Of a DNA stretch of 19,839 nt, positions 3,956 through 19,323 are shown piece by piece. This DNA comes from a virus (Duplodnaviria > Heunggongvirae > Uroviricota > Caudoviricetes): positions 1-19,839 of the IMG/VR virus record IMGVR_UViG_2778261687_000006. The stretch is one strand, 5' to 3'. The notes under the pieces were generated by a model that did not search any database, had not been told where the DNA came from, and worked only from the letters and a program-made list of their open reading frames with translations. The position numbers and the translations under genes are program-made. The first letter of the stretch is position 1. The number at the start of each line of letters is the position of its first letter.

Positions 3956-3974
3956 AACTTGTTACCTCGGTCTG

Positions 3975-4017: not shown

Positions 4018-4036
4018 TAGATATGAGTTAAAAAAA

Positions 4037-4051
4037 TTACCCGTTAGGTAA
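4037..4051. promoter_or_regulatory. Dyad operator-like site TTACCCGTTAGGTAA
   Basis: Same TTACC-N5-GGTAA dyad, upstream of the pL-like -35. Confidence 0.5.
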
Positions 4052-4060
4052 TCGAATAGG

Positions 4061-4086
4061 CAATAAAAAAGCCGCCATAAGGCGGC
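4061..4086 (-). terminator. Rho-independent terminator for the repressor-like gene
   Basis: On the minus strand: GCCGCC-ttat-GGCGGC hairpin followed by TTTTTTATTG, directly downstream of the stop of the 4109..4693 gene. Confidence 0.7.
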
Positions 4087-4108
4087 TTACTTACTGAAAA
4101 ATATGGTT

Positions 4109-4693: not shown

Positions 4694-4748
4694 TTTCTGG
4701 AAAATCGCCTCATATCTGAATCAGAAGATGATTCAATTTAAAGCAATA

Positions 4749-4822
4749 TTACCCAACAGGTAAATGCACCTCACGGGTAACTATCCTTGATTTTTGTTAC
4801 CTTATAGGTGAATATTTATTAT
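4749..4822. promoter_or_regulatory. Immunity-region operator/promoter cluster: three dyad sites (4749-4763, 4766-4780 degenerate, 4797-4811) and a PR-like promoter (-35 TTGTTA 4794-4799, -10 TATTAT 4817-4822)
   Basis: Three TTACC-N5-GGTAA-type sites spaced about 17-30 bp apart between the divergent genes; the third sits in the spacer of a plus-strand promoter 26 bp upstream of the Cro-like ATG. Confidence 0.5.
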
Positions 4823-4847
4823 CTGAAATAAATATCAGGCAATAGCT

Positions 4848-5078
4848 ATGAGCGATAACGGACATTTCGATTTCAAAAAGCACTGGCTTGCACTTACTCC
4901 GGATGAGCGTGAAGCCTTCGCACAGGAAGCCGGAACGACGAGTCACTATATCCAGACTCACTTAACAGGTAAGCGCAAAATGCCAGGTAAGGTATTGATG
5001 GATGGGCTTTTTAAAGCCTGTAAATCAAGACAATGGCTGCGCTCAAAAGCAGAACTGGCATACTTCTTCTACTCATGA
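4848..5078 (+). CDS. Cro-like small HTH regulator
   Basis: 76 aa, divergent from the repressor-like gene; HTH-like segment TPDEREAFAQEAGTTSHYIQTHLTGKRKMP; followed directly by an intrinsic terminator. Confidence 0.55.
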   Translation: MSDNGHFDFKKHWLALTPDEREAFAQEAGTTSHYIQTHLTGKRKMPGKVLMDGLFKACKSRQWLRSKAELAYFFYS

Positions 5079-5100
5079 TATCCAGCCACAACCCTCTGTA

Positions 5101-5122
5101 GACCGCCATCCGGCGGTCTTTT
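5101..5122 (+). terminator. Rho-independent terminator after the Cro-like gene
   Basis: GACCGCC-atcc-GGCGGTC hairpin followed by TTTT. Confidence 0.6.
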
Positions 5123-5133
5123 CATATCTATTC

Positions 5134-5148
5134 GTACCTCAAAGGTAA
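5134..5148. promoter_or_regulatory. Dyad operator-like site GTACCTCAAAGGTAA
   Basis: TTACC-N5-GGTAA family member just after the Cro terminator; an ATATGGTT box follows at 5160-5167. Confidence 0.45.
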
Positions 5149-5161
5149 TAAAAAACCAAAT

Positions 5162-5422
5162 ATGGTTGATCTTTTTTTTGTGTCAGCACAAAATAACCGT
5201 AATCCCAATACCAATAACAGGGCTTACCATGGAAATCATTACACGTATTTCGCTGTGATGCTCGCCACCGGAGAGATGGAACTGCACGAAGTGAAAGGTT
5301 TCTGGACCGACGACGCCAGGGTGAAAACCAAAGTCGCCGCAGATCAGTATCCGTTCCGAATCATCGGGGTAACGGTTAAACCAAAGAAAGCAGGTGGTGG
5401 CTGGAACATCGAAGAGTTCTGA
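5162..5422 (+). CDS. Hypothetical small protein; start codon uncertain (ATG 5162, or internal ATGs giving about 48-55 aa)
   Basis: ORF track entry; the first ATG lies inside the conserved ATATGGTT box and lacks an RBS. Coding status doubtful. Confidence 0.3.
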   Translation: MVDLFFVSAQNNRNPNTNNRAYHGNHYTYFAVMLATGEMELHEVKGFWTDDARVKTKVAADQYPFRIIGVTVKPKKAGGGWNIEEF

Positions 5423-5483
5423 ATCGACGATCTTTTTAGTTATCAATGTAATCAATAAGTTATGTGGATAAGCGAGGGTAAAG

Positions 5484-6197
5484 ATGGAAAGTAATATCAA
5501 AGGGTTAGTTTCCGCCGGGCATGAGATGGCTTCGGAACTGAAAGCAGAATGTGGTGCCGTTGATATGCGCAGTGTGGCAAAGCTGATCAGCGATTTGGCA
5601 ACGCAACTGGAAGTGCAACTGGTGCGTGCTAATGCGCTGGCCGAAGACCACCAGAGAGCCATTGAGTCAATTAAACAGGCTGATTCGGCTGTTAAGTTGG
5701 CACACGAGAAGTTTTCGGCGCTGGCTGCGGAGAATGCAAGACTGAAGGCCGGGGCTATGTATTTCTCATATGGCTCTGAATTTAGTTTCGAGTGTCACAA
5801 AACTGCTGAGGAGGCTATCGCTGCTGCTGAGGCTGCAATTGACGACTATAGAGGCGATGCTTGCGATGGATGGAGCGAAGAGGTCGAAAGCATTTGCTGG
5901 GGGGTAATTATTCAGCAGGCAACCAAGGTCGGTGAACGCAAGAAGAGGAAATGCGACAGAGTATCACCATGGATTGAAAGAGTTTGTGATTATGAGCTTC
6001 GACCTAATGTCGAAACCCCAGCCACCGATGCTTTCCTTGCTGAAGTTCGGGCGCAGGGGGTGGATATGGCTCGTAACGCGATGATTGATTTTGTTGATGG
6101 TGAAGTTGGGCCAAACAAGAACGTTCCGGGGCTGATTAGAGGCGCAGAGATATGCGTAAGTATTGCTGAACAGCTTCGCAAAGGAGGCAACCAGTGA
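5484..6197 (+). CDS. Hypothetical phage early protein with coiled-coil N-terminus (possibly Ea22-like)
   Basis: 237 aa; RBS GAGGG before the ATG; heptad-like Ala/Glu-rich N-terminal region; stop overlaps the start of the next gene. Confidence 0.55.
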   Translation: MESNIKGLVSAGHEMASELKAECGAVDMRSVAKLISDLATQLEVQLVRANALAEDHQRAIESIKQADSAVKLAHEKFSALAAENARLKAGAMYFSYGSEFSFECHKTAEEAIAAAEAAIDDYRGDACDGWSEEVESICWGVIIQQATKVGERKKRKCDRVSPWIERVCDYELRPNVETPATDAFLAEVRAQGVDMARNAMIDFVDGEVGPNKNVPGLIRGAEICVSIAEQLRKGGNQ

Positions 6198-6613
6198 GCG
6201 AAATTAATTACCAGGCACTGCGTGAGGCGGCGGAACGTGCAATTCCAGCAATGGAACGCCTGTTAATGTTGCCAGCTGATGATGATTTGTTAAGTGAACA
6301 GGAACTTAAAGATTACGGTGTGGATATTGATGCGCTCAACGCCTTCAAATTTCTGGCCGGACCAGAAACCGTGCTGGCACTACTGGATGAACGGGAAAGG
6401 AACCAGCAATACATCAAATCCCGCGATCAGGAGAACGAGGATATTGCGCTAACGGTTGGGAGGCTGCTAATCGAAAACGGCCGGCTTGTTGCCGATACGC
6501 TACGCCACTTAGCTGATAACGAAATCGACTCTGATTATTTTGCTATCACCTCAACGAATGAGAACGGTACTGAAATTGATCATGAGATGGCTATTACTGA
6601 GCCGCCAGGATGA
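6194..6613 (+). CDS. Ead/Ea22-like family phage protein (recollection-based assignment)
   Basis: 139 aa; GTG start with strong RBS AAGGAGG 6 nt upstream; N-terminus MSEINYQALREAAERA and VLALLDERERNQQ resemble lambdoid Ea22-like proteins as I remember them. Confidence 0.55.
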   Translation: MSEINYQALREAAERAIPAMERLLMLPADDDLLSEQELKDYGVDIDALNAFKFLAGPETVLALLDERERNQQYIKSRDQENEDIALTVGRLLIENGRLVADTLRHLADNEIDSDYFAITSTNENGTEIDHEMAITEPPG

Positions 6614-6761
6614 TGCACGTGTGCGCTGGCGTATAAAATCGATCAGCAGAAAACGGTGCGGTAAGTGCGGCGAGAGAGTTCCTGTTAATTCATGCCCGTG
6701 TAATGGTGACTCGCAATGCTGGGTGAATAAAGGCTGGCATGAAACGAAATTAATAGTGTGA
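6540..6761 (+). CDS. Possible small Cys-rich (zinc-ribbon-like) protein; coding status uncertain
   Basis: ORF overlaps the 3' end of the previous gene in another frame; C-terminal CGKCGERVPVNSCPCNGDSQCW has CxxC ... CxC spacing. Its stop codon lies inside the GTGACATGTCAC palindrome. Confidence 0.25.
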   Translation: MLSPQRMRTVLKLIMRWLLLSRQDDARVRWRIKSISRKRCGKCGERVPVNSCPCNGDSQCWVNKGWHETKLIV

Positions 6762-6769
6762 CATGTCAC
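6758..6769. repeat. Perfect 12-bp palindrome GTGACATGTCAC, copy 1
   Basis: Read directly; overlaps the stop codon of the 6540..6761 ORF, upstream of the terS terminator. Confidence 0.9.
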
Positions 6770-6810
6770 GAGTAGATTATGCATGATGAATTTGATGGGT
6801 TTTGAATACT

Positions 6811-6837
6811 GCCGCCAACTATGGCGGCTTTATTTTG
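6811..6837 (+). terminator. Terminator-like hairpin upstream of terS
   Basis: GCCGCC-aactat-GGCGGC followed by TTTATTTTG; same stem sequence as the 4061-4086 terminator. Confidence 0.5.
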
Positions 6838-6843
6838 CATGGT

Positions 6844-6872
6844 ACTATTACCACAACGGTAACTATTACCAC
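6844..6872 (+). repeat. Tandem direct repeat ACTATTACCAC (6844-6854 and 6862-6872) immediately upstream of terS
   Basis: GGTACTATTACCACAACGGTAACTATTACCACGG read directly; includes an inverted GGTAA-cta-TTACC arrangement. Confidence 0.8.
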
Positions 6873-6879
6873 GGTGGTT

Positions 6880-7476
6880 ATGATGCCTGCTGAACCTAAA
6901 ACCTATAAACGCAAATCAACGCAATTTAAGCCACTAACAGCAATGCAGGAGGCTTATTGCCAGTCATACATCAAAACGCCTGAAAACCAGACTCAGGCAG
7001 CGATTAACGCAGGATTTTCCCCAAATACAGCGGCAGTTAAAGCCAGTGTCATGATGCGCGATGAACGCATTCAAAAACGGATTGCCGAGTTGATGGAGGA
7101 GCGCAACAAACGAATGCGCGTCAGTGCTGATTACGTTCTCATGCGCCTGGTGGAGATCGACCAGATGGACGTGATTGATATCCTCAACGACGATGGGAGC
7201 CTTAAGCCAATCCGCGAGTGGCCGAAAATCTGGCGCACTACGCTTAGTGGCTTTGATCTGTCGTCGACCATCATGAACATGAACGAGGATTCGATAGAGA
7301 CAATCCTCAAAAAAATTAAATGGCCTGACAAGGTGAAGAACCTTGAGCTGATTGGTAAGCATGTTGATGTCAACGCGTTCAAAGAACGTCTGGATGTTAA
7401 TGTGAATGTGACAATTGCTGATCGCATAGCAGCAGCCAGGAAGCGACTCAAAGAACGTCAGGATGGTAATCAGTGA
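6880..7476 (+). CDS. Terminase small subunit (TerS)
   Basis: About 198 aa from the ATGATG at 6880; positioned immediately upstream of and overlapping the large terminase gene; basic helical N-terminal region (TAVKASVMMRDERIQKRIAEL) consistent with a DNA-binding small terminase. The track's TTG-start extension translates a direct-repeat region. Confidence 0.65.
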   Translation: MMPAEPKTYKRKSTQFKPLTAMQEAYCQSYIKTPENQTQAAINAGFSPNTAAVKASVMMRDERIQKRIAELMEERNKRMRVSADYVLMRLVEIDQMDVIDILNDDGSLKPIREWPKIWRTTLSGFDLSSTIMNMNEDSIETILKKIKWPDKVKNLELIGKHVDVNAFKERLDVNVNVTIADRIAAARKRLKERQDGNQ

Positions 7477-8948
7477 CAGATACAGCGTTATCTCCTGAAG
7501 AGCAGTTGATCGAGGATATTGCAGGGTTCACTCACGATCCGCTTGGCTATGCCCTCTATGCGTTCCCGTGGGGGGAAGAGGGGACTGAACTGGCACATGC
7601 TACCGGTCCACGTCAGTGGCAGGCTGATGCGTTCCGAGAGATACGTGATCACCTGCAGAATCCAGAGACGCGCTATCAGCCGCTTATGCTGGCACGTGCT
7701 TCTGGTCACGGTATTGGTAAATCCGCATTCATCTCAATGCTGATCAACTGGGGCATGTCCACTTGCGAGGATTGTAAGGTCGTGGTGACCGCCAATACCG
7801 ACAACCAGCTACGAACGAAGACCTGGCCGGAAATTATCAAGTGGTCGAACCTTGCTATCACGAAAGACTGGTTCACCTGTACCGCTACCGCGATGTACAG
7901 CAATGATCCTGGGCACGACAAGCGGTGGCGAGCTGACGCAATCCCCTGGTCTGAGCACAATACTGAGGCGTTCGCCGGACTACACAACGAGCGCAAACGT
8001 ATCATCGTGGTATTCGATGAAGCGTCGAACATTGCGGATCTGGTGTGGGAAGTTGCCGAGGGTGCGCTTACGGACGAAGACACTGAGATTATCTGGGTGG
8101 CGTTCGGAAACCCGACGCGTAATACCGGACGTTTCCGAGAATGTTTCCGCAAATATAAACACCGCTGGAAAACTGCGCAGATTGACAGCCGGACGGTTGA
8201 AGGCACTAACAAACAGCAGTTGCAGAAATGGGTTGATGACTACGGGGAAGACAGCGACTTCGTTAAAATCCGTGTGCGTGGCATATTCCCTGATGCATCT
8301 GAATTGCAGTTTATCCCTACCGGTCTTACTGACGAGGCAATGAAACGGGTGGTAACCGCTGCGCAGGTGGCACATGCTCCGGTGATAATCGGCGTTGACC
8401 CGGCATACTCCGGCGTTGATGACGCGGTGATATACCTGCGGCAGGGGCTGCACAGTAAGGTGCTGTGGACTGGCAACAAGACCACCGACGATCTGATTAT
8501 GGCGAAGCGTATCGCTGACTTTGAAGACCAGTATCAGGCCGACGCGGTGTTCATCGACTTCGGTTACGGTACTGGCCTGAAGTCAATCGGTGACGACTGG
8601 GGGCGCACATGGCAACTTGTTCCGTTCGGTGGCGCGTCTACTGACCCGCAGATGCTCAACAAGCGTGGGGAGATGTTCAACTCATGTAAGACATGGCTGA
8701 GGCTGGGCGGGATGCTGGATGACCAGGAAACAGCGGACGACCTGTCGACGGCAGAGTACAAAGTTCGCGTGGACGGTAAAATCGTTATCGAACCGAAGGA
8801 AGATATCAAAGAGCGACTTGGGCGTTCGCCGGGGAAAGGCGATGCGCTATTGCTGACGTTTGCTTTCCCTGTGTCGAAGCGCCTGCGAATTCCCGGTCAG
8901 CAGAACCAGCAAGGCAAGGCCATCACAGATTACGACCCGTTTGCGTGA
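7473..8948 (+). CDS. Terminase large subunit (TerL), ATPase plus nuclease
   Basis: 491 aa; Walker A-like ASGHGIGKSAF, Walker B-like RIIVVFDEASN, C-terminal acidic nuclease-like motif VIIGVDPAYSG. GTG start overlaps the terS stop (GTGA). Confidence 0.85.
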   Translation: MTDTALSPEEQLIEDIAGFTHDPLGYALYAFPWGEEGTELAHATGPRQWQADAFREIRDHLQNPETRYQPLMLARASGHGIGKSAFISMLINWGMSTCEDCKVVVTANTDNQLRTKTWPEIIKWSNLAITKDWFTCTATAMYSNDPGHDKRWRADAIPWSEHNTEAFAGLHNERKRIIVVFDEASNIADLVWEVAEGALTDEDTEIIWVAFGNPTRNTGRFRECFRKYKHRWKTAQIDSRTVEGTNKQQLQKWVDDYGEDSDFVKIRVRGIFPDASELQFIPTGLTDEAMKRVVTAAQVAHAPVIIGVDPAYSGVDDAVIYLRQGLHSKVLWTGNKTTDDLIMAKRIADFEDQYQADAVFIDFGYGTGLKSIGDDWGRTWQLVPFGGASTDPQMLNKRGEMFNSCKTWLRLGGMLDDQETADDLSTAEYKVRVDGKIVIEPKEDIKERLGRSPGKGDALLLTFAFPVSKRLRIPGQQNQQGKAITDYDPFA

Positions 8949-8949
8949 T

Positions 8950-9690
8950 TTATTGCTTATTTTTCACGGCTTCAGCAATCATTCTCTCAGCCTGTGATGT
9001 ATATGTTTTTCGCAAGGGTTCATGGCCCATATGCAATACGATACCTTCCTTTTCTTTTTCCTTTAATTCTTGTATGAGATTATTTATTTTGGCCTCCCTA
9101 TCTTCAAGCATTCTGGCGGACTTTTCTGCCTCAATCTTTAACGCTGCAGCCACTGATTGCATGTTTTCCAGCTTCTTATTCAATTCCAAAACCTTATCGG
9201 AGAGCCTATCTCTTTCCGCCGTTAGCTCACCCATCCTGGCCTGTGACTCCGTAATTCTTTCCTTCATAGCCTGTATGTCTTTTTCGGCGCCAGTCTTAAC
9301 TTTGTCGTATGTCACATCGTGCTTTGCCTTCAGGCGCTGCAGGCGTGTGGCGCGATGAATGCGCTTGGCCTTCCGGTGGTTCTCTATCGAATCGTAATTA
9401 TCAAGAGGTTTGGCTTGCCACTTTGAAATCACGTTGTTGATCCAGGGCATGCCGCCGCACAGGATTATTGCTGAAACACATGGGAATGCTAATACCGTTT
9501 TCCAACTGCTATTACTGGAAATGTAGGTGATCTTGTCGATGATGCTGGAGTCGCTGAGGAGTAAGTATAAAATCGACTTCCAGTTAAAGGCGCACCATGA
9601 CAGTGCGAACGCTCCAAACACTGGATTTCTGACCCTTTGCGCAGCGGTATTAACGGTTGAAGATAGGTATTCTTTAAGTGATTCAAGCAT
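8950..9690 (-). CDS. AT-rich cargo gene: membrane-anchored coiled-coil protein of unknown function (candidate superinfection-exclusion or abortive-infection factor)
   Basis: 246 aa; two hydrophobic segments near the N-terminus, then a long charged heptad-like region (KERITESQARMGELTAERDRLSDKVLELNKKLENMQ). AAGGG RBS. Convergent with terL with a 1-nt gap. Visibly AT-rich compared with neighbours. Confidence 0.55.
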   Translation of the reverse strand: MLESLKEYLSSTVNTAAQRVRNPVFGAFALSWCAFNWKSILYLLLSDSSIIDKITYISSNSSWKTVLAFPCVSAIILCGGMPWINNVISKWQAKPLDNYDSIENHRKAKRIHRATRLQRLKAKHDVTYDKVKTGAEKDIQAMKERITESQARMGELTAERDRLSDKVLELNKKLENMQSVAAALKIEAEKSARMLEDREAKINNLIQELKEKEKEGIVLHMGHEPLRKTYTSQAERMIAEAVKNKQ

Positions 9691-9720
9691 GTCCAGGCCC
9701 TTTTAGGTTTTTTTCTGATT

Positions 9721-9735
9721 CTACCTTTAAGGTAA
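9721..9735. promoter_or_regulatory. Dyad operator-like site CTACCTTTAAGGTAA in the promoter of the 8950..9690 gene
   Basis: Lies in the spacer of a candidate minus-strand promoter (ATGACC ... TAGAAT) about 40 bp upstream of the start codon. Confidence 0.45.
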
Positions 9736-9757
9736 TCTTCGGTCATTATGAAAAACG

Positions 9758-9803
9758 TATCCCTATGAGGGGATAATGTCGTTGATATCCTCTGATGAGG
9801 ATA
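9758..9803. promoter_or_regulatory. Two tandem dyads of a second type, TATCC-N8-GGATA (9758-9775 and 9786-9803)
   Basis: TATCCctatgaggGGATA and TATCCtctgatgaGGATA, 28 bp apart, upstream of the 8950..9690 promoter. Confidence 0.4.
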
Positions 9804-9829
9804 AAACAAAGCCAGCTCATCGGCTGGCT
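9801..9829 (-). terminator. Rho-independent terminator after the 9850..10221 gene
   Basis: On the minus strand: AGCCAGC-cgatgag-GCTGGCT hairpin followed by TTGTTTTAT, about 20 nt past the stop codon. Confidence 0.5.
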
Positions 9830-9833
9830 GTTT

Positions 9834-9845
9834 GTGACATGTCAC
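9834..9845. repeat. Perfect 12-bp palindrome GTGACATGTCAC, copy 2
   Basis: Read directly; 5 nt beyond the stop of the 9850..10221 gene, before its terminator hairpin. Confidence 0.9.
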
Positions 9846-9849
9846 GGTG

Positions 9850-10221
9850 TTATTGCTCGCTTAACTTCTGCTTCAGCAAGTAACCTTCAAGCATCCAGAT
9901 TTTGTTTACAGCATTCTGCCGGGCAATCTTCCGACCAATTTCCGCATCAAAGTTTTCCGGGCTTGCACAGGCGCTCTCTCCGGTGACGGTGAAGCCGTTG
10001 CGCAGCACCAGAACGCAGAACGTCAGCAGAGAAAGTGATTCGTGCGGCTGGTAGTTTACCTCTCCGCCAGTATGTTTCGCTTTTATGGCTACGCCAAAGA
10101 CACCATCTTCTGCTGTGAAATATGCCTCCTGAGCAATAATGCTCTCGATATGGTCTGGCGTAACGCGCGGCGCGGCTAAACCTTTAGCCTGAATTTCAGA
10201 TTCAATGTCTTTGTCACTCAT
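9850..10221 (-). CDS. Conserved hypothetical phage protein (123 aa)
   Basis: ORF with RBS AAGGTGA; sequence feels familiar from enterobacterial prophages but I cannot name the family with confidence. Confidence 0.55.
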   Translation of the reverse strand: MSDKDIESEIQAKGLAAPRVTPDHIESIIAQEAYFTAEDGVFGVAIKAKHTGGEVNYQPHESLSLLTFCVLVLRNGFTVTGESACASPENFDAEIGRKIARQNAVNKIWMLEGYLLKQKLSEQ

Positions 10222-10424
10222 AGTCTAATCTCACCTTAAAAAAATGCCCGGCGAACCGGGCGAACTGGAAGCAATGAGTTATGCCTTCCGTGGCTGTACT
10301 GGTTTACAGCATGAAGTCATCGCAATGGCGTCCTGCTGTAAAAAGGGCGGTGATAGTCCTTCAAGGGAAACCATCACCGCCAAGCCCCTGGAACTTCTGG
10401 CATCACGGTCCTTAGGCGTGATTC

Positions 10425-10501
10425 TGGCGTGGCATGCAGGATTCGAACCTGCGACCAACCGCTTAGAAGGCGGTTGCTCTGTCCAACTGAGCTAATGCCA
10501 C
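10425..10501 (-). tRNA. tRNA-Arg (anticodon UCU), phage-encoded
   Basis: Hand-folded cloverleaf on the minus strand: acceptor GTGGCAT/ATGCCAC, D-arm GCTC-AGTTGGACA-GAGC, anticodon arm ACCGC-CTTCTAA-GCGGT (U33, anticodon TCT, A37), variable loop TGGTC, T-arm GCAGG-TTCGAAT-CCTGC, discriminator G, encoded CCA. Acceptor and anticodon stems differ from host argU as I recall it. Confidence 0.85.
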
Positions 10502-10823
10502 AACGCTGAGAGCACTTAGCCTGTTAAGGCGCCACACTTTGTCGCGGCTCCATAAATGCTCTCATCGTTGCACCCTCGTCTCTTCCGAGGCGTCACACCG
10601 AATCGCCGGGATGGTGAATCCCCGTGCGCGGAATAAAACCGCTCGACTTGCACATTCCGGCTACCTGGTTCGTTTGCCCGAGCAAGGGAGGGTGCCCCTT
10701 AAACGTATCCAGACCGCTATCGTCGCATGTGCCATACGCCGTACTGCTCAACATAAAAGCTCACTCCACCTGTTCAATTTAACGACAAGCCAGTCAGGTT
10801 AGTAACCGGAATGAACTCTTTTG

Positions 10824-10838
10824 TTACCTGAAAGGTAA
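10824..10838. promoter_or_regulatory. Dyad operator-like site TTACCTGAAAGGTAA
   Basis: Lies beside a minus-strand TTGACA (10855-10860) and about 70 bp upstream of a -10-like GATAAT (10899-10904) for the plus-strand operon. Confidence 0.45.
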
Positions 10839-10928
10839 TAATTTGCGCATTAAATGTCAACTGTCTACGACAAGTAAATCATATGTGGTTAAATTGGTGA
10901 TAATTTAATTGCGTACGGAGTCATTGAT

Positions 10929-11186
10929 ATGTGCATGGGTAGCTCACCATCAGTGCCTGCAACACCAGAAGTTCAGGCAGCACCACAGGAGCAGGATGCC
11001 GCCGTTGTTGATGCCCGCGACGAAGAAACTCGTCGCCGTCGCGCTGCTGCTGGTCGTAGTTCTACGCTGCTTGAGGCGGTGCAGAACCGCATGAACGATA
11101 TGTTCAATAAGTCGAATCTCTACCAGTCGCTGCCGGTGTTCAGCGGTATCTGCGTGTTAACTACTCCGTCGCAACTGGCCCACTAA
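10929..11186 (+). CDS. Hypothetical protein (85 aa); may be part of a frame-disrupted larger gene
   Basis: RBS GGAG 8 nt upstream of the ATG. A second frame stays open from 11111 to 11267 without any start codon and translates to protein-like sequence. Confidence 0.4.
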   Translation: MCMGSSPSVPATPEVQAAPQEQDAAVVDARDEETRRRRAAAGRSSTLLEAVQNRMNDMFNKSNLYQSLPVFSGICVLTTPSQLAH

Positions 11187-11279
11187 CGGCTGGCGAATTC
11201 ACTGCTGGTATCAGTCTTGATGTTGATGCCAATACGCCGTATCCGATCCGCTCAAAAGTAACTGGTTAAGGTGATATCG

Positions 11280-11630
11280 ATGTCAGGTGAGAAACCAAGA
11301 TACCGCGTTCTGCGCCTCTCTCATATCCATAACACTCTGTGGCCGGAGGGGGCAGAAATCGAATACGAAGGTGAGCCTGGTAGCGCACTGGAACCTGTTA
11401 ACGATGCAGCCAGACAGGCAAAAGCAAAGGTAGCAGGAAAGGTGTCAATGGCAGCAACCAGTACCAAAATCATCAACGATGTGTCAGATGATGGTGAGCT
11501 GGATAAGCTCCGTGAAGAGTACGAATTGCTCTTTAACGAGAAGCCACACCATAACGCCAAAGCCGAAACGCTCCGCGAGAAGATCGCAGATAACCGGTTC
11601 TGGTATTCAGCGTGGAACATGGAAAGGTGA
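11280..11630 (+). CDS. Hypothetical protein (116 aa)
   Basis: ATG at 11280 with RBS GGTGA 6 nt upstream; acidic, helical-looking sequence. The +1 frame stays open across its last 150 nt. Confidence 0.5.
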   Translation: MSGEKPRYRVLRLSHIHNTLWPEGAEIEYEGEPGSALEPVNDAARQAKAKVAGKVSMAATSTKIINDVSDDGELDKLREEYELLFNEKPHHNAKAETLREKIADNRFWYSAWNMER

Positions 11631-11679
11631 ATTAACGAGAAGTGTTTTCCTGTTTAAATCGTTCCCTATCTCGGTGGTT

Positions 11680-12240
11680 ATGCGTCACTGGTCACGCGCT
11701 ATGGGTATGCCGTCTGCTGGTGGGCGTGCGGCATATATTGCGACGTTTATTGCCAGTACGACCATTCTTGGAGCTTTGTCGCAGCAACTTAACGACCTTG
11801 CGTCTGGTCGTAATCCTCGCGAGATGACAGGAGAAGATGCCGCAAAATTCTGGCTTGGTGCTCTATTGAAAGGTGGTGGTCTTGGCCTTTACGGTGACTT
11901 TTTATTGTCAGATCACACTAGGTACGGAAGCGGCGCGCTGGCGTCGATGCTTGGCCCGGTGGCTGGTCTGGTTGATGACGTAGTGAAGATTGCTCAGGGC
12001 ATACCGTTAAATGCTGTGGAAGGGAAGAGTGAGCAGACTGGTGGTGATCTGGTGAAGCTGGGGAAAGGTTTGATGCCAGGTGCGAATCTCTGGTACTTGA
12101 AGGCGGCTCTCGATCACATGATCTTTAACCAGATGCAGGAGTATTTTTCACCAGGCTATTTGCGTAAAATGGAGCAACGTTCGAAGAAAGAGTTTAACCA
12201 GACATACTGGTGGCGACCTCAGGATGTCACTCCGCAATAA
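11680..12240 (+). CDS. Hypothetical protein with Gly-rich hydrophobic segments; start poorly defined (ATG 11680 or GTG 11674), possible frameshift fusion with the upstream ORF
   Basis: Long open frame 11479..12240, protein-like only after about 11640; no well-spaced RBS at the candidate starts. Confidence 0.45.
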   Translation: MRHWSRAMGMPSAGGRAAYIATFIASTTILGALSQQLNDLASGRNPREMTGEDAAKFWLGALLKGGGLGLYGDFLLSDHTRYGSGALASMLGPVAGLVDDVVKIAQGIPLNAVEGKSEQTGGDLVKLGKGLMPGANLWYLKAALDHMIFNQMQEYFSPGYLRKMEQRSKKEFNQTYWWRPQDVTPQ

Positions 12241-12249
12241 GGATGAGAA

Positions 12250-12390
12250 ATGATTGCTTTTATTCTTGTTGTATTTGTGCTTGTTGCCCTTGGCGTTATG
12301 AATCGTAAATGTATCATTGAAGACGGTGAATTTGCTGTAGCAGTTGTTTTGATATTATCTGGTGTAGCAGGGTACATAGGTTTGTCATAG
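12250..12390 (+). CDS. Small hydrophobic peptide (46 aa, two predicted membrane segments); not in the ORF track
   Basis: Hand translation MIAFILVVFVLVALGVMNRKCIIEDGEFAVAVVLILSGVAGYIGLS; RBS AGGA upstream; stop TAG at 12388-12390. Confidence 0.35.
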   Translation: MIAFILVVFVLVALGVMNRKCIIEDGEFAVAVVLILSGVAGYIGLS

Positions 12391-12397
12391 CTTGAGT

Positions 12398-12409
12398 GTG
12401 ACATGTCAC
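12398..12409. repeat. Perfect 12-bp palindrome GTGACATGTCAC, copy 3 (extended form TGTGACATGTCACA)
   Basis: Read directly; in the convergent gap between the 12250..12390 ORF and the 12434..12691 gene. Confidence 0.9.
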
Positions 12410-12433
12410 AGGCCGCTTTCGCGGCCCTTAAAT

Positions 12434-12691
12434 TTACCGGATTTGTTTTCGTAATTGTTCGGCACAATAGTCGAGATGTGTTTGCAGATCCTGCATAGAC
12501 ATCTGTGAGCTGGTGACGTAGTTAATCAGTGCAGTCAGTTCGGCAAGTGGGCCATCGACATTAAATCCATCCTTATCGAGATCCCGGAGTAATTTCATCA
12601 AGTGCGATCCCTCCACCAGTGACCTGACGCCTCCCGGCGTGTGAATCCTTTCGGTAAATCCGTCTTCCAGTGGATAGTGATACTGCTGCAT
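12434..12691 (-). CDS. Hypothetical protein (85 aa from the ATG at 12691)
   Basis: ORF track 12434..12757 with a GTG at 12757; the internal ATG at 12689-12691 has GGAG about 8 nt upstream. Divergent from the tailspike gene. Confidence 0.45.
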   Translation of the reverse strand: MQQYHYPLEDGFTERIHTPGGVRSLVEGSHLMKLLRDLDKDGFNVDGPLAELTALINYVTSSQMSMQDLQTHLDYCAEQLRKQIR

Positions 12692-12767
12692 CTTATCTTC
12701 TCCATGCAATAACTGTATATTTATGCAGTAGCAAATAATTTGTTTGCTATCCAGCACGTTTTGCGAA

Positions 12768-12782
12768 TCACCTGAAAGGTAA
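12768..12782. promoter_or_regulatory. Dyad operator-like site TCACCTGAAAGGTAA
   Basis: In the divergent intergenic region between the 12434..12691 gene and the tailspike gene; followed by the ATCCATATGTGGTT box (12809-12822) and a -10-like TAGAAT (12833-12838). Confidence 0.45.
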
Positions 12783-12886
12783 TATCTGTTCGTATTTATG
12801 GTTTATCTATCCATATGTGGTTTTTCAGGTAATAGAATAACCGGATATGCGGCGCAACGGGTGCTGCGACTATCTGGAGATTTAAC

Positions 12887-15571
12887 ATGACGGTCTCAAC
12901 CGAAGTTGACCATAACGAATATACAGGTAATGGCGTTACGACTTCATTTCCTTATACCTTTCGAATTTTTCAGAAGTCAGACCTGGTTGTGCAGGTTGTT
13001 GATCTGGATGAAAATATAACCACTCTTGTGCTTGATACTGATTATTCGATTACAGGTACTGGTGGATACACGGGGGGGAATGTTGTTTTATCAACTGCTT
13101 TAGGCAATGGGTATAAGATTTCTATTTCAAGAGAGTTGCCGGTTACCCAAGAAACAGACCTAAGGAACCAGGGGAAGTTTTTTGCAGAAGTGCATGAGGA
13201 TGCATTTGATAAGTTAACTATGCTTGTTCAGCAGGTAAGAAGTTGGTTTAGTCTGTCGTTAAGAAAACCATCCTTTGTAGCCAACTATTATGACGCCCTG
13301 GGCAACTATATCAGAAATCTCAGGGATCCATCTCGGCCGCAAGATGCTGCTACAAAGAACTATGTAGACAGTATTTCTGAAACCAATCTCAACAGAACGC
13401 TAAGAACACCTGAACCTATACCCACACTTCCATCTGCCGCTGTCAGGGCGAACAAGATAATAGCCTTCGATAATAGTGGGTCTCCTTTTGTAACATTGCC
13501 GCCATCTGGTTCTGCCACTGATGTTCTTGTTGAATTAGTGAAACCAACAGGTGCCGGGTTATCAGGTTATAGCGATTCTATCCAGTATCCTGACGGTACT
13601 GTTGGTAGTGCCATTAAAGATCAGAATTTCAGGAAAAAAATAATCTACAAACTTCCATTTCAGTTCGCTGGGTATTCTGATGCACTGGCGGCAATTGGAG
13701 CTGGAAGCATCATATACCCGCAGGGTGCTGACTATGATGATGATGGTCTACTCTTCATTAACTATGTGCCTAATGCTGGAGGGGCGCTTAGGGTTATAGT
13801 TGTTTATAACCAGGCAGGAGAGCAAGTAACGTGGTTTTATAGTCCAAACAGTAGTAATCAGTCTGTGGCTATATATGGCGGAAGTTCATCACGTAGATTG
13901 TATGACAGACGTCTTGGGGATGATTTTGTTTATTATTATGACATAACCACATTACCCGCAGCAGGTAGCACGCTTTCAGGGCACACAATAACGACAATTC
14001 AGTCGGCTGGATCACATATGTGCATTGAGGGTAATTTACTCTTCTGCACATTAAACGCGACACCAGTAGGATTGTCACAATCACAGACTGTTATAAATTC
14101 TTATCGTCTTGATACAGGTGAGAAGCAGGGAACAATAAATGTCTCTCAGATGCTTACAGGGTTTGCAACTCCAGAGCTCTCCCCTACCTACTATTACATG
14201 GTATGGAAAATTCAGGGTATAGCATACAAAAATGGGATCCTTCATATAGGCGTAGGTGGCAGTTATCGTCCTACATTTGATGATGCAAAATACCCTGTTC
14301 ATGATTACGGAGTCCTCAGAGTGTCACTCTCTGGTGAGTTAATAGACCACTCTGTTGTGAAATCAGATAAGTTGATGACTTATCTGGCATCAAACGGTTG
14401 CACCGTCTCAAGAACAGAGTCAGAGGGATGTTTCAAGCACCCTGACGGCACTATCCATTCAATTCTTATCGGTGATATGGCTGAATCATCTCCTAGCACA
14501 CCCAATGGCATTGTTATAATGAGGGAGTTTTCAAGAGATGGGTTTGACATGCTGGATGCCGCTTCAGGATACTGCCCGATACCAACATATGGATTTAATA
14601 GGCTCATGCGTTCGGAGCATGGGGAACTGCGCGATCCAGTCTTAAATACAGTCTTCAGCAGTGTTACTCAAATTCTTGATTTAATGGCTTCATTAAACAT
14701 AACTGAGTTCTCTTGGTTTTCAACCATTGCTCCTTCGCTCACCACGATACCTGGTCTTAACTACGTAATAGGACAAATTTACCATGTTACTAATATGAAC
14801 AATGCAGGATTCATTATTGAATCCTCCGGTACTGTACTTGGGCTAGAAATTTATTCCGTAGTTGGCAGAATTGGGTCATGGACAGCTACAAGGCGCTCAT
14901 TGTCAGGAACAAAGCTTAATATTAATAATTCAGGTGGTTTAGGCAAAATATCATTTACAACGTCAACAGGAAAAGAAGTTGGCATCGCTCAAATAAACTA
15001 TACCGGAACCTCTACGCCTCTTGTTATCGGCTCAGGGGGTACTTTAAACCCTAATGCTATTTTCTTCTTCACAAATCCGACAGTGACAAGTGAAAGTGGT
15101 GGGACTCAATCTCTTCAGATTTACAGTGATCAGGTATTGCCTGGCGTCGCTAGCGCGCAGTCTAACGGGAGTGCATCATTTAAATGGACTCAGGTCTACG
15201 CCGATTCTGGTTCCATTAACACATCTGACAGAAGAAAGAAGACAGATTTCGAGGATATAAGTGAAGCCGAAAAGCGTGTGGCTATCAAGATTAAGGGAAT
15301 GATTTGTCGGTACAGAATGAAGGATGCGGTAGCTATTAAAGGCGATGGCGCAAGATATCATATAGGTGCAATTGTCCAGGATGTTATCTCTGCGTTCGAG
15401 GATGAAGGGCTAGATCCCATGCGTTATGGGATGGTTTGCTACGATAAGTGGGATAAGAAGGAACCAGAATATGATGAAAATGGAATCATGACATTCTCAG
15501 GTTGCGAAGCTGGTGATGGTTACTCTTTGAGATATGATGAGATGTTATGTTTCATTATTTCTGCTATTTAA
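12887..15571 (+). CDS. Tailspike / tail fibre protein with C-terminal intramolecular chaperone (peptidase S74-like self-cleaving domain)
   Basis: 894 aa; N-terminus MTVSTEVDHNEYTGNGVTTSFPYTFRIF resembles the T7-gp17-type particle-binding domain and, from memory, epsilon15-like tailspikes; Ser/Thr/Gly-rich central region; C-terminal ...INTSDRRKKTDFEDISEAEKRVAIKIK... matches the endosialidase-type chaperone domain. RBS GGAG. Confidence 0.85.
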   Translation: MTVSTEVDHNEYTGNGVTTSFPYTFRIFQKSDLVVQVVDLDENITTLVLDTDYSITGTGGYTGGNVVLSTALGNGYKISISRELPVTQETDLRNQGKFFAEVHEDAFDKLTMLVQQVRSWFSLSLRKPSFVANYYDALGNYIRNLRDPSRPQDAATKNYVDSISETNLNRTLRTPEPIPTLPSAAVRANKIIAFDNSGSPFVTLPPSGSATDVLVELVKPTGAGLSGYSDSIQYPDGTVGSAIKDQNFRKKIIYKLPFQFAGYSDALAAIGAGSIIYPQGADYDDDGLLFINYVPNAGGALRVIVVYNQAGEQVTWFYSPNSSNQSVAIYGGSSSRRLYDRRLGDDFVYYYDITTLPAAGSTLSGHTITTIQSAGSHMCIEGNLLFCTLNATPVGLSQSQTVINSYRLDTGEKQGTINVSQMLTGFATPELSPTYYYMVWKIQGIAYKNGILHIGVGGSYRPTFDDAKYPVHDYGVLRVSLSGELIDHSVVKSDKLMTYLASNGCTVSRTESEGCFKHPDGTIHSILIGDMAESSPSTPNGIVIMREFSRDGFDMLDAASGYCPIPTYGFNRLMRSEHGELRDPVLNTVFSSVTQILDLMASLNITEFSWFSTIAPSLTTIPGLNYVIGQIYHVTNMNNAGFIIESSGTVLGLEIYSVVGRIGSWTATRRSLSGTKLNINNSGGLGKISFTTSTGKEVGIAQINYTGTSTPLVIGSGGTLNPNAIFFFTNPTVTSESGGTQSLQIYSDQVLPGVASAQSNGSASFKWTQVYADSGSINTSDRRKKTDFEDISEAEKRVAIKIKGMICRYRMKDAVAIKGDGARYHIGAIVQDVISAFEDEGLDPMRYGMVCYDKWDKKEPEYDENGIMTFSGCEAGDGYSLRYDEMLCFIISAI

Positions 15572-15576
15572 AAAAT

Positions 15577-15600
15577 GCCCCGTAGAGGGGCTTTTTTTTT
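15577..15600. terminator. Bidirectional rho-independent terminator shared by the tailspike and acyltransferase genes
   Basis: GCCCC-gtaga-GGGGC hairpin flanked by AAAAA upstream and TTTTTTTTT downstream. Confidence 0.75.
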
Positions 15601-16588
15601 ACTTGGCTATCACCCTATTTAACAAAGGAGTTTTTGAAAGTATCACAGCTATCAACAGGGACGCAAAGACATAAAATATAGTTGCAACAGGTATTCCCCA
15701 TGCATAATTTGATACTGGAGCTATTTTCCATGTTATAAATATAATAATAGGATGTATAAGATAAATTCCAAATGCATATTCGGAAATTAGAGTTACAAGT
15801 TTATTTGCATTTTTGCTTATTCTGTCTGCGTATCCAATGCAGGCGCAGGTTGTTGCTATTGCTGTCATGCCAACAATGGGGCTAAAGTTGCTTAGGTTTA
15901 CTCCTTTGATCCCATGAATCAATATAGCCTTATTTGTAAAGACACATATAACCGCAAGGATAACAGCAGTTAACGAAATGAAAGCGCGTAATTTTATGAT
16001 ATGGCTTTCAAGTCGTGCAACTATACATCCGGCAAAAATATAGAACATTAATGTACTTACAAATGGAATATCTATAGATGGTGCATTAGGAATAAAATTC
16101 TTTAGTTGTGGGTATAAAGAATTTCCATAGAATAGAATTAAAAATATCATCACGTTATACCGCAAATCCATGCGTTGGCATCCAATAATTATCATCGGGA
16201 GAAACATGTAAATCGCAATATAATGATACATAAACCATAGATGAACAGCAGATGGCTTCATGATATTAAAGCTGCTTACTGAAGTATCTTTAAATATAAT
16301 GTAATAAGATGCATATATTACCCACCAAAATACAAGAGGGACAAATAAGACATTAAAACCCTTTTTAATGTAATCATGGAATTCGAATTCCTTTTTATGG
16401 TAGTAAAGAAACCCTGTTATAACTATGAAAATACCAATGCATTGCTTTGATATGGCGCTATATACGTTAGCCCAATCCCAATCAGGCGAAGACTTTGCAC
16501 CAACTGGACCAGCGGCAACATGCAGCAACACCACCAGCACAATGGCGATGAAACGAGCTAAAACTACGCCATAGTTCTTCTCATTCAT
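15599..16588 (-). CDS. Acyltransferase family 3 integral membrane protein, likely O-antigen acetyltransferase (lysogenic conversion)
   Basis: 329 aa, about 10 hydrophobic segments; N-terminal VLARFIAIVLVVLLHVAAG matches the acyltransferase-3 signature (R-x-x-x-H in TM1); visibly AT-rich; sits directly after the tailspike gene as serotype-converting acetylases do in P22-like/Sf6-like phages. Confidence 0.8.
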   Translation of the reverse strand: MNEKNYGVVLARFIAIVLVVLLHVAAGPVGAKSSPDWDWANVYSAISKQCIGIFIVITGFLYYHKKEFEFHDYIKKGFNVLFVPLVFWWVIYASYYIIFKDTSVSSFNIMKPSAVHLWFMYHYIAIYMFLPMIIIGCQRMDLRYNVMIFLILFYGNSLYPQLKNFIPNAPSIDIPFVSTLMFYIFAGCIVARLESHIIKLRAFISLTAVILAVICVFTNKAILIHGIKGVNLSNFSPIVGMTAIATTCACIGYADRISKNANKLVTLISEYAFGIYLIHPIIIFITWKIAPVSNYAWGIPVATIFYVFASLLIAVILSKTPLLNRVIAK

Positions 16589-16641
16589 TTTAATATTTAT
16601 CCAATATTTTTAATGGGTTCCACAATCATTAACTACAATAT

Positions 16642-16656
16642 ATACCCATAAGGTAA
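16642..16656. promoter_or_regulatory. Dyad operator-like site ATACCCATAAGGTAA
   Basis: Between the acyltransferase and lysis genes; followed by ATCCATATATGGTT (16685-16699) and a -10-like TATGAT (16706-16711). Confidence 0.45.
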
Positions 16657-16752
16657 TTTAGTTAAGAGTTATCAGAGGTAAACTTATCCATATATGGTTT
16701 ATTGTGTATGATGGACTTACCAACTAAGGGGGTTCATTATGCACAGTAAACG

Positions 16753-17166
16753 GTGGCTGATATGTCAGCTCAGCTAACCAGTGAGTCTTTAAATCAGTGG
16801 CTTAGCATGGGTTCTCTGGCTGCTGTCATTGTCGGGGTTCCTCCAGAGGTCGCTCTTGGTGCTTTATCCGGCGCGGTAATATTTATTACCTCTGCCGTTG
16901 AGTATCCAATACGCCGTCGGGTTCTCCTATCGATGCTCAGCTTTCTCTGCGGGCTACTCTTCTACAAACCGACTGCATCAATTCTTATCGGCGTAGCCAG
17001 CATGATCCCAACTATCACGCAGGACTCATTCGAGAAAGGGATCGTCTTTTCTGCTGGCGCGTTCGTGTCGGCAATAGTCGCAGTACGTATTGGAATCTGG
17101 CTCTATCACCGCTCAGACAATCCACGCGATTTAATCCCTGGGAGAAAAGACGATGACAACTCATGA
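16753..17166 (+). CDS. Holin-like membrane protein (about 3 TM segments, charged C-terminus); start uncertain (GTG 16753 or ATG 16762)
   Basis: First gene of the lysis cassette; hydrophobic segments and C-terminal [19 protein letters not shown] strong SD AAGGGGG (16725-16732) is positioned for an ATG at 16739 in another frame (12-codon ORF). Confidence 0.5.
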   Translation: MADMSAQLTSESLNQWLSMGSLAAVIVGVPPEVALGALSGAVIFITSAVEYPIRRRVLLSMLSFLCGLLFYKPTASILIGVASMIPTITQDSFEKGIVFSAGAFVSAIVAVRIGIWLYHRSDNPRDLIPGRKDDDNS

Positions 17167-17461
17167 TCTGCTTTTACTTATTGCCAATGCAGTTATTTGT
17201 ACTGGCATAGCAATTCGCGTTGTCACATTCCGGCGTAACGGATCTCAACATCGAAGATGGGGAGGGTGGCTTGCTTATTTCCTTATTGTTGCTGCGGCCA
17301 GTATTCCTGTTCGTGTCGTCTATGCAATCTGGTTACGCACGCCAATGGCTGTGGATTTATCTGAGGTTATTATCAACGCTGTCATGCTTGCCGCTGTTAT
17401 TAAAACACACGGTAACGTTGTTCAGATTTTCAAAATATCGAGGTCTAAACATGGAGATTAA
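17153..17461 (+). CDS. Second holin/antiholin-like small membrane protein
   Basis: 102 aa with three hydrophobic segments; RBS GGGAG; overlaps both neighbours, immediately upstream of the endolysin. Confidence 0.5.
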
Positions 17462-18080
17462 ACAATTCCAGCGAGCTGCTGGTATTAGCGAGGCGCTGGC
17501 CGCACGCTGGTTCTCGCATATAACTTCTGCGATGAAAGAGTTTGGTATCAGAAAACCCGAAGATCAGGCAATGTTTATTGCTCAGGTCGGGCATGAGTCT
17601 GGAGGCTTCACCCGGTTGCAGGAGAATTTCAACTACAGCGTAACTGGACTGGCTAACTTCGTTCGGGCTGGGCGTCTCACTCAGGGACAGGCCAACGCAT
17701 TGGGGCGACGCGCAGGAGAACCACCATTGCCACTTGAGCGCCAGAGAGCGATTGCCAATCTGGTGTACAGCAAACGCATGGGGAACAATGCCCCCGGCGA
17801 TGGCTGGAATTACCGAGGTCGCGGACTTATCCAGATTACCGGTTTGAATAACTATCGTGACTGCGGAAACGGCTTGAAAGTTGACTTGCTGGAGAATCCT
17901 GAACTGCTGGCGCAGGACGAATACGCGGCTCGTAGCGCGGCGTGGTTCTTCTCCAGCAAAGGTTGCATGAAGTATACAGGCGATATTGCACGTGTAACTC
18001 TGATTATCAATGGTGGCCGGAACGGCATCGACGACCGGCGCGCGCGGTACATCACTGCCAGTAAGGTGCTGGCGGTATGA
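17451..18080 (+). CDS. Endolysin, glycoside hydrolase family 19 (chitinase-like lysozyme)
   Basis: 209 aa from the ATG at 17451 (RBS GAGG); GHESGGF catalytic region and [16 protein letters not shown] matching the GH19 signature; located between holin-like and spanin genes. Confidence 0.85.
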
Positions 18081-18574
18081 TCTGGGCATTCGCAAAAGCA
18101 TACAGGAAACAGTTGGTTATCATGGTGATGCTTGCTGTTCTGGTCATATCAGGAGTTGTAGCTTGGAATGCACACGGCAGTCGTCAGTACGACGCCGGGT
18201 ATGCGCAGGCACAGGAAGATCAGAAACAGGCTAATGATAAGGCCAGGTCACAACGTGATCAGGAGAAAACACAAATTGAACGTGAAGCACAATCCCGTAT
18301 CGATGTGGCGCGTGTTGATGCTGAGCATGCTAATGCCGCTGCTGACAGCCTGCGCGCCGAGCTTGACAAAACCAAGCGACTCGCCGAACACTATACCGGA
18401 TCTTTCCCCACTGGCACGCCAGCCAGCAAGGTCATCGGTGTGCTCGCCGACATGCTTGAAGAAAGCAATCGAGTTTACAACGCAACAGCAGCTGAGGCTG
18501 AAAAGTATCGGATTGCAGGAGAATCCTGCGAACAGCAATACGATTCACTGAAGAAGCAAAAATCGTGGTACTGA
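18077..18574 (+). CDS. Rz-like i-spanin
   Basis: 165 aa; N-terminal TM ([18 protein letters not shown]) followed by a charged coiled-coil periplasmic domain; start overlaps the endolysin stop (ATGA). Confidence 0.7.
18303..18551 (+). CDS. Rz1-like o-spanin lipoprotein, embedded in the +1 frame of the Rz gene
   Basis: Embedded ORF with signal [17 protein letters not shown] (lipobox LTAC) and a Pro-rich mature region ([25 protein letters not shown]). Start codon choice uncertain (18303, 18318 or 18333). Confidence 0.5.
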   Translation: MWRVLMLSMLMPLLTACAPSLTKPSDSPNTIPDLSPLARQPARSSVCSPTCLKKAIEFTTQQQLRLKSIGLQENPANSNTIH

Positions 18575-18704
18575 TTTCCGGTGACGGTATATAAAACGGT
18601 ACTAGAAAAATTAAGTTTTGGAAAAATGTTATCACTCAATTGGTTATGATTGTCGTAAATAATTGAGTGGGAATGATTTGACCCTGCACTATGAATGAAC
18701 AAAA

Positions 18705-18730
18705 CCCTCTGTTACTACAGAGGGTTTTTT
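18705..18730. terminator. Bidirectional rho-independent terminator after the lysis cassette
   Basis: CCCTCTGT-tact-ACAGAGGG hairpin followed by TTTTTT, preceded by AAAA on the other side. Confidence 0.7.
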
Positions 18731-18768
18731 ATCTTCAAGAATTATAGGATTGAAGTTACTAACATCGA

Positions 18769-19308: not shown

Positions 19309-19323
19309 GACTCCTCCTGATTA

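Follow-up and report, generated by a model that had tools for sequence, protein, structure and literature searches.

Does the stretch between positions 10929 and 12240 of this viral record encode a protein by programmed recoding, or does it hold what is left of broken structural genes? The window analysed here, by which we mean the whole stretch of DNA (19,839 nt; positions 1 to 19,839 of IMG/VR record IMGVR_UViG_2778261687_000006), carries at this point a series of open reading frames that had been described as changing frame three times. The original prediction proposed programmed +1 frameshifting at GAA-AGG-TGA, fusing the ORF that begins at 11280 to the frame downstream as in prfB, or else decayed fragments of structural genes, and mentioned sequencing error at homopolymers as a further possibility; the frames and coordinates that it listed are present in the ORF list and in the raw sequence (Table 1). 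Comparison with intact relatives points to the second reading. We estimate a probability of about 0.95 that 10929-12240 represents non-functional deletion scars, produced during ordinary prophage decay by three microhomology-mediated deletions in a defective phiV10/epsilon15-like prophage.

Table 1. Open frames, gene fragments, alignment blocks and junctions at 10929-12240 and its flanks.
Feature	Window position	Strand	phiV10 position	Description
ORF, 85 aa	10929-11186	+		ATG 10929 to TAA 11184-11186
Start-less open frame	11111-11266	+		Closed by TAA 11267-11269
ORF, 116 aa	11280-11630	+		ATG 11280 to TGA 11628-11630
Third frame	to 12240	+		Open to TAA 12238-12240; protein homology from 11590
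GAA-AGG-TGA	11622-11630	+		gp20 sequence read in the frame of gp12; accidental stop
gp06 remnant	10929-11072	+		phiV10 gp06, epsilon15 gp3-like; small gene upstream of portal; codons 1-48
Portal island, 63 nt	11073-11135	+		phiV10 gp07; codons 104-124
Bbp16-family capsid cement 3' remnant	11136-11269	+		phiV10 gp11; codons 102-145 and native TAA
gp12 remnant	11280-11593	+		phiV10 gp12, epsilon15 gp9-like, 111 aa; codons 1 to ~105
gp20 3' remnant	11590-12240	+		824-aa internal virion/ejection-type protein; epsilon15 gp17 position; codons 609-824
gp21, intact	12250-12390	+		Small membrane-protein gene; blastx gp21 aa 1-46 at 91%; annotation of relatives
blastn block	9769-11072		2197-3500	98.4% identity
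blastn block	11069-11135		3883-3949	98.5% identity
blastn block	11130-11596		7599-8065	99.6% identity
blastn block	11589-12426		18684-19521	
J1	11069-11072		3500 joined to 3887	GCTT microhomology; 386-bp deletion; in frame
J2	11130-11135		3949 joined to 7605	CTGCCG microhomology; 3,655-bp deletion; out of frame
J3	11589-11593		8062 joined to 18689	GATAA (5 nt exact); 10,626-bp deletion; out of frame

The element and its intact relatives

When phage records were searched by megablast, phiV10 and other members of Uetakevirus (epsilon15-like) were matched only from window position 11589 onward, and full blastn against phiV10 (NC_007804.2) resolved the window as a colinear prophage with gaps, the adjacent blocks overlapping each other by 4, 6 and 8 nt. 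Intact chromosomal prophages of E. coli JML285 and E47 gave an identical block structure. Across the window, gene order is colinear with that of phiV10, JML285 and E47, nucleotide identity ranging from 83 to 99.6%, and this holds for the early, packaging, tailspike and lysis modules alike. Shared with Uetakevirus are the recombination genes, the repressor, the terminase, tRNA-Arg and the tailspike, as well as the O-antigen acyltransferase and the lysis cassette. In JML285 and E47 the prophage adjoins yfgI/yfgH, with guaA and the integrase at the opposite end in E47. The last genes in the window are likewise yfgI/yfgH, and its yfgI-side junction is identical to that of both strains; the window is therefore a chromosomal phiV10-like prophage of E. 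coli adjoining yfgI.

The window differs from phiV10 in the absence of phiV10 positions 3501-3886, 3950-7604 and 8063-18688, which comprise most of the interval from portal to gp20, and of 33228-35321, which holds replication genes. Its tailspike is of the JML285 type and not of the phiV10 type, and its terminase is followed by an additional 246-aa gene; a defence function for this gene was considered and rejected, PADLOC returning only weak coiled-coil-type matches. Of the morphogenesis module that a functional phage needs in full (portal, protease, major capsid, tail and ejection proteins), the four fragments at 10929-12240 are all that is left, so that the prophage is defective. Altogether some 14.7 kb has been lost from this block, including portal, protease, major capsid, capsid staple, tail, internal virion proteins and most of gp20, and the absence of morphogenesis genes from the element can thus be explained base by base.

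Elsewhere in the window, a deletion at 5247-5249 (J4; phiV10 33227 joined to 35319-21 with a 3-nt overlap) removes the DnaT-like and P-like replication genes; no genome among 541 was contiguous across this region. The gp55 homologue is probably truncated by yet another junction, near 6594-6600.

Fragments and junctions between 10929 and 12240

In searches with PHROG and Pfam profiles, which do not rely on phiV10, every piece of the region covers only part of a profile, and the families differ from piece to piece. The gp06 remnant, which keeps its native Shine-Dalgarno sequence and ATG, corresponds to gp06 aa 1-52 by blastx and to positions 3-50 of 70 in phrog_831, while the portal island corresponds to portal aa 103-128 and to positions 102-130 of 560 in phrog_332 (head-tail adaptor). 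The frame that had been listed as start-less is the own frame of gp11 and ends at the native stop codon of that gene; it matches gp11 aa 94-145 by blastx, positions 85-115 of 115 in Pfam PF21190 (Bbp16) and positions 99-142 of 142 in phrog_427. The gp12 remnant retains its native Shine-Dalgarno sequence (AAGGTGA) and ATG but has lost its C-terminus (blastx, gp12 aa 1-106 at 99%; phrog_590, positions 1-106 of 111). What remains of gp20 is its last 216 codons, in the native frame and without a start of its own (blastx, gp20 aa 600-824; phrog_684, virion structural protein, positions 619-831 of 840), and this region is 100% identical to its counterpart in JML285, C6 and OY754382, whose prophages are intact. 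The first undamaged gene past the scars is gp21.

The suggestion that decayed fragments of structural genes lie here, tied to the missing morphogenesis block, is therefore upheld, in that the segments map to four phage genes. These genes are separate and intact in the annotations of intact relatives, all of which show distances of as much as 10.6 kb between them. A search for one continuous homologue, which had been proposed as a check, found none spanning the frame changes by blastx or with PHROG and Pfam profiles. Of the three changes of frame, two are genuine breaks (J2 and J3), and the third, at 11267-11280, is the native boundary of two adjacent genes, consisting of a stop codon, the Shine-Dalgarno sequence AAGGTGA and an ATG. 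Nor are clean translation starts missing, as had been supposed: 10929 and 11280 are both native starts with good Shine-Dalgarno sequences. The last frame, thought to become protein-like only after about 11640, shows homology to gp20 already from 11590.

J1 fuses gp06 to the portal gene in frame, and had escaped the original prediction for that reason. J2 is out of frame, and the ORF that starts at 10929 consequently reads gp11 DNA to an accidental TAA at 11184-11186. Past J3, the gp12 frame runs out of frame into gp20 DNA and encounters a TGA after 11 codons; the shared sequence at this junction grows to 8 nt (11589-11596) if one mismatch is allowed. Against a null distribution of simulated random junctions in phiV10, 56% of which share 0 nt, the tail probabilities are 0.017 for 4 nt, 0.0018 for 6 nt, 0.0059 for 5 nt and 0.053 for the 3 nt of J4, giving a joint probability of approximately 1e-8 for J1-J3 together with J4. 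The region thus combines distant, colinear parent sites with an excess of shared bases, as a microhomology-mediated deletion scar should, and the junctions are typical of microhomology-mediated illegitimate recombination.

The GAA-AGG-TGA motif

The case for programmed recoding began with real features. The ORF starting at 11280 does end in GAA (11622-11624), AGG (11625-11627) and TGA (11628-11630), placing an in-frame stop directly after a rare arginine codon, the purine-rich AAGGTGA is present at 11624-11630, and the +1 frame is open past the TGA. The element also carries a genuine tRNA-Arg gene with anticodon UCU (10425-10501, minus strand), found by both ARAGORN and Rfam. The cognate codon of tRNA-Arg(UCU) is AGA, AGG being read only by wobble.

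The open +1 frame, however, is that of gp20 itself, in which the site reads ACA TGG AAA GGT GAA TTA, or T-W-K-G-E-L. The 30-mer that holds the motif occurs in 84 IMG/VR stretches, and gp20 was uninterrupted upstream in 80 of the 80 that were read; similarly, a 400-nt segment spanning the right side of J3 is uninterrupted in every one of the 312 complete E. coli genomes that carry it. The motif is therefore conserved as in-frame gp20 codons, and only as the codons for W-K-G-E, and has not been shaped as a shift site. The two frames that a shift would join come from unrelated genes brought together by deletion, 10.6 kb apart in phiV10, JML285, E47 and all other intact relatives, whereas recoding of any type should leave a continuous homologue with a conserved site; gp12 (phrog_590) and the gp20 C-terminus (phrog_684) are separate genes. 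Furthermore, in two unrelated deletion alleles of the phage family (L011 and L013) different upstream genes run into the identical TGA, which indicates that this codon is merely the first stop in that frame.

In prfB, frameshifting depends on a Shine-Dalgarno-like AGGGGG that ends 3 nt before the slippery CTT-T and 6 nt before the stop, and on a TGA followed by C (PMC12421855). The window site resembles this arrangement in its open +1 frame, in the purine-rich stretch nearby and in a stop read by RF2 in the frame of the ATG at 11280, but the in-frame TGA is the only one of the hallmarks that it possesses. The P site would hold AGG, to which GGT in the +1 frame is non-cognate, and there is no pyrimidine run; the sequence upstream is ..GGAACATGGAA-AGG-TGA, without a Shine-Dalgarno-like element at 3-nt spacing, and the sole purine run near the site (GGAAAGG/AAGGTGA) overlaps the shift codon as well as the stop. 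The TGA is followed by A instead of C, and no fused product is conserved. Rfam returned no match in 10850-12300, even at E<=1, and found only the tRNA when known RNA recoding elements were sought. The element belongs to no recoding family. Programmed +1 frameshifting at GAA-AGG-TGA has, in our judgement, next to no chance of being correct, and a plausible-looking +1 recoding site can be struck off.

Rarity of the allele and course of the deletions

The allele is rare. The chimeric 116-aa ORF (WP_089519679.1) was represented by 2 contigs in a cluster look-up, compared with at least 1000 contigs for the normal 111-aa gp12, and 4 carrying contigs were read. Among 5,426 complete E. coli genomes, 535 of which match parts of the region, none contains the contiguous mosaic and none has gp12 adjacent to the gp20 C-terminus; a search of IMG/VR for the exact J3 junction gave 0 matches. 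That so few assemblies carry it might suggest that homopolymer indels or misassembly had created the frame changes. Yet homopolymer error is irrelevant to changes that are deletions of 0.4-10.6 kb and not indels of 1-2 nt, and the mosaic recurs in two assemblies, Logan SRR3988171 and NCBI GCA_012386995.2, which both match the window at 100% identity over 18,560 bp, although they possibly derive from the same isolate or reads. The Logan and NCBI submitter pipelines differ and nonetheless agree perfectly across these 18.5 kb; identity in two assemblies of one rare clone makes misassembly by a single assembler unlikely. Moreover, assemblers use k-mers far longer than 4-6 nt, and joins at microhomologies this short should not be of their making. 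We consider a sequencing or assembly artefact to be very improbable.

The deletions could have arisen by RecA-independent illegitimate recombination or by template switching at the 4-6 nt microhomologies, and probably a single complex event of several jumps removed almost the whole block, from the portal through most of gp20. Complex deletions through serial replication slippage or microhomology-mediated template switching are a known process, to which the region bears a likeness in its colinear jumps, 4-6 nt microhomologies, short islands and outer ends at a 9-nt direct repeat; it differs in that the mechanism is here only inferred. The repeat, ACCGGTTCT, has only two copies in phiV10 (3501 and 18688), both adjoining the outer breakpoints, and the same is true of JML285; ACCGGTTC(T) is likewise confined to phiV10 3501 and 18688, the exact sites of the outer breakpoints. 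The sequence deleted directly after the left outer breakpoint is identical to that retained at the right one. By simulation, the probability of such a coincidence is approximately 6e-4 with positional slack, or 4e-3 when alternative endpoint pairings are allowed, although this is one 9-nt coincidence, recognized post hoc, on which the case for a single event depends. Because the outer breakpoints adjoin the sole two copies, one serial template-switch or break-repair event seems to us preferable to three separate deletions, at roughly 60:35.

Three independent deletions, accumulated in sequence during slow prophage decay, make a credible if less probable history. The prophage has suffered a further, unlinked deletion at 5247-5249 and probably another near 6594-6600, and independent deletions have occurred elsewhere in the phage family (L011, L013, L105 and L106). 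Against such a history stand the position of the outer breakpoints, beside the only two copies of the repeat, and the failure to find any intermediate allele with no more than one or two of the junctions. The 85-aa ORF (J1 and J2) and the 116-aa ORF (J3) were both traced to Logan contig SRR3988171_56, their cluster records having one longest contig (218,333 bp) in common. The islands are also tiny (63 and ~460 nt) and 98.5-99.6% identical to intact phage, as serial template switching predicts; the identity of the fragments to intact relatives, at 97-100%, suggests that the event was recent.

A bolder version of the single event, in which all three junctions result from a multi-jump event nucleated at the 9-nt repeat ACCGGTTCT and the gp20 copy is a recurrent break- or stall-prone site, appears doubtful. 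The gp20 copy is GATAACCGGTTCTGG and contains the palindrome AACCGGTT. A look-up of the 186-aa gp20 remnant, which finds only truncations within ~125 nt, returned further damaged prophages, their lesions lying at phiV10 18684-18699; the deletions of L011 and L013 and a 1-nt insertion in L012 all fall within ~15 nt of the gp20 repeat copy. Control look-ups with the 138-aa and 179-aa forms added breakpoints at or before 18764 and at 18623/18793. With these included, 3 of ~6 points lie within 15 nt, which is not significant (P ~0.2, a rough scan-statistic estimate), and the apparent clustering at the ACCGGTTCT site disappears once the way in which the relatives were ascertained is controlled for. 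Were the gp20 copy recurrently prone to breakage, inactivation of prophages in the phiV10-like family would be partly site-directed and not random. Two specific causes of breakage were also rejected. CRISPR self-targeting at the breakpoint found no spacer-sized partial match in complete E. coli genomes (120-nt query, E<=10), and restriction cutting at ACCGGT/RCCGGY fits 3 of 8 endpoints, but phiV10 has 16 and 36 such sites respectively, and there are none near the other endpoints.

The genes that survive around the scars raise another question, namely whether decay has been selective. The terminases, the 894-aa tailspike, the O-antigen acyltransferase, the holins and the endolysin are exactly as long as their counterparts in intact relatives, and several independent deletion alleles also keep the gp20 3' end and the genes downstream. 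It could be argued from this that terminase, tailspike, acyltransferase and lysis genes have been kept on purpose in a selected, domesticated or satellite-like element, with the C-terminal fragment of gp20 functioning as a small protein. However, retention of the gp20 3' end in other alleles follows from the fact that these alleles were found by look-up of that very fragment, which in the window has neither a native start nor a Shine-Dalgarno sequence. Essentially a single clone carries the allele, and the replication genes have been deleted too, all of which renders such a function highly unlikely.

As a defective prophage with deletion scars, the element belongs to a class of object that is already well known. 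The cryptic prophages of K-12 are an example of deletional decay in E. coli, and E. coli cryptic and defective prophages generally resemble the window in having lost morphogenesis and replication genes, while truncated and chimeric ORFs stand beside intact accessory genes. The present case differs from them in appearing recent and clone-specific, with clean microhomology junctions and no involvement of IS elements. Nothing about it is even mildly unusual except its clean multi-jump structure with a 9-nt repeat as anchor, and it offers a tidy natural example of a microhomology-mediated complex deletion in prophage decay. For annotation, the ORFs at 10929-11186, 11280-11630 and 11680-12240 are best treated as pseudogene fragments of gp06/portal, gp12 and gp20 respectively, which could still be translated as junk peptides. 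At least two of these fragment ORFs have been deposited as hypothetical proteins (WP_089519679.1 and WP_172805311.1), and the third has a record as a 'phage protein'.

A deletion in the replication region and a probable junction in gp55

A fourth deletion junction interrupts the replication genes of the prophage (see the table), where two phiV10 segments are joined with a 3-nt overlap and approximately 2.1 kb of phiV10 sequence is gone, comprising most of gp42, the DnaT-like initiator and lambda-P-like genes, and the 5' portion of a DUF1064 gene. The 86-aa ORF that spans it is a chimeric remnant. Matches were present in 541 complete E. coli genomes, and in none of them did they run contiguously across this junction. 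A fifth junction is probably present at approximately window 6594-6600; Ead/Ea22-like similarity stops at about 6597-6600 and similarity to phiV10 restarts at 6594, already within the 3' end of the gene gp55, which encodes a homologue of transcriptional regulators and of which just the last 168 nt are left in the window. This region is highly mosaic, so the break in similarity at this candidate junction may stem from natural mosaicism as well as from a deletion.

Coordinates of features in the window, phiV10 and damaged phiV10-like relatives
Feature	Sequence	Position	Strand	Description
Fourth deletion junction	Window	5247-5249		In ORF 5162-5422; phiV10 33227 joined to about 35319-35322
246-aa gene	Window	8950-9690	-	Between large terminase and gp49/66-family gene
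83-aa ORF	Window	10244-10495	+	Counterpart of annotated phiV10 CDS PhiV10p04
tRNA-Arg(UCU) gene	Window	10425-10501	-	Overlaps 83-aa ORF on the other strand
ACCGGTTCT	Window	11593-11601
ACCGGTTCT, two copies	phiV10 (L003)	3501-3509; 18688-18696
gp20 lesion	L011	2918-2924		Deletion from P-like replication gene to phiV10 18692-98, at GTTCTGG
gp20 lesion	L013	2017-2066		Multi-junction deletion with 50-nt gp18 island; ends 18694-96
gp20 lesion	L012			+T insertion in GGTT, same spot as L011 and L013 ends
gp20 lesion	L010			Nonsense mutation TGG>TGA, ~20 nt downstream of that spot
gp20 lesion	L105	~2815		Deletion, end at or before phiV10 18764
gp20 lesion	L106	2875-2877		Internal 169-bp deletion, phiV10 18624-18792

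A short repeat and gp20 lesions in other prophages

phiV10 has just two copies of the sequence ACCGGTTCT, as does the prophage of E. coli JML285, and these sit precisely where the outermost breakpoints of the deletion junctions J1-J3 fall; one copy has been deleted and the other is kept at window 11593. By simulation with offset slack, the probability of this coincidence with the outer breakpoints is approximately 6e-4. The copy within gp20, the gene for an 824-aa virion protein, contains the palindrome AACCGGTT. This part of gp20 is also hit by independent lesions in further phiV10-like prophages from public assemblies; the clustering of these lesions is largely explained by the ascertainment of these loci, which were found through look-ups of the gp20 C-terminal remnant.

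Mosaic ancestry and accessory genes

The prophage is a mosaic. Fragments to the left of J3 are nearest to phiV10 (98.4-99.6%, against 91-97% to JML285). Over the whole stretch to its right, the prophage shares 99.7% identity with that of JML285, compared with just 83-97% with phiV10; this stretch includes the acyltransferase, the lysis cassette and the 894-aa tailspike, which has a C-terminal Peptidase_S74 domain.

The 246-aa gene is absent from both phiV10 and JML285, and was found at this position in only five complete E. coli genomes (UTME-9/10/12/14 and E47). Its product matches phrog_4780, a family of unknown function, with weak, sub-threshold Pfam matches to PEARLI-4 and UPF0242 and weak PADLOC matches to LmuB/JetC; the gene may be a moron.

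At the tRNA-Arg(UCU) site, JML285 and E47 are annotated with the tRNA alone and no CDS, and the phiV10 CDS PhiV10p04 is probably spurious. E47 is the closest intact relative having the 246-aa gene. Just upstream of its tailspike gene an ISKox3-family (ISL3-like) transposase is inserted (33060-34280 of the E47 locus, L007), which is another route of prophage damage within the phiV10-like family.
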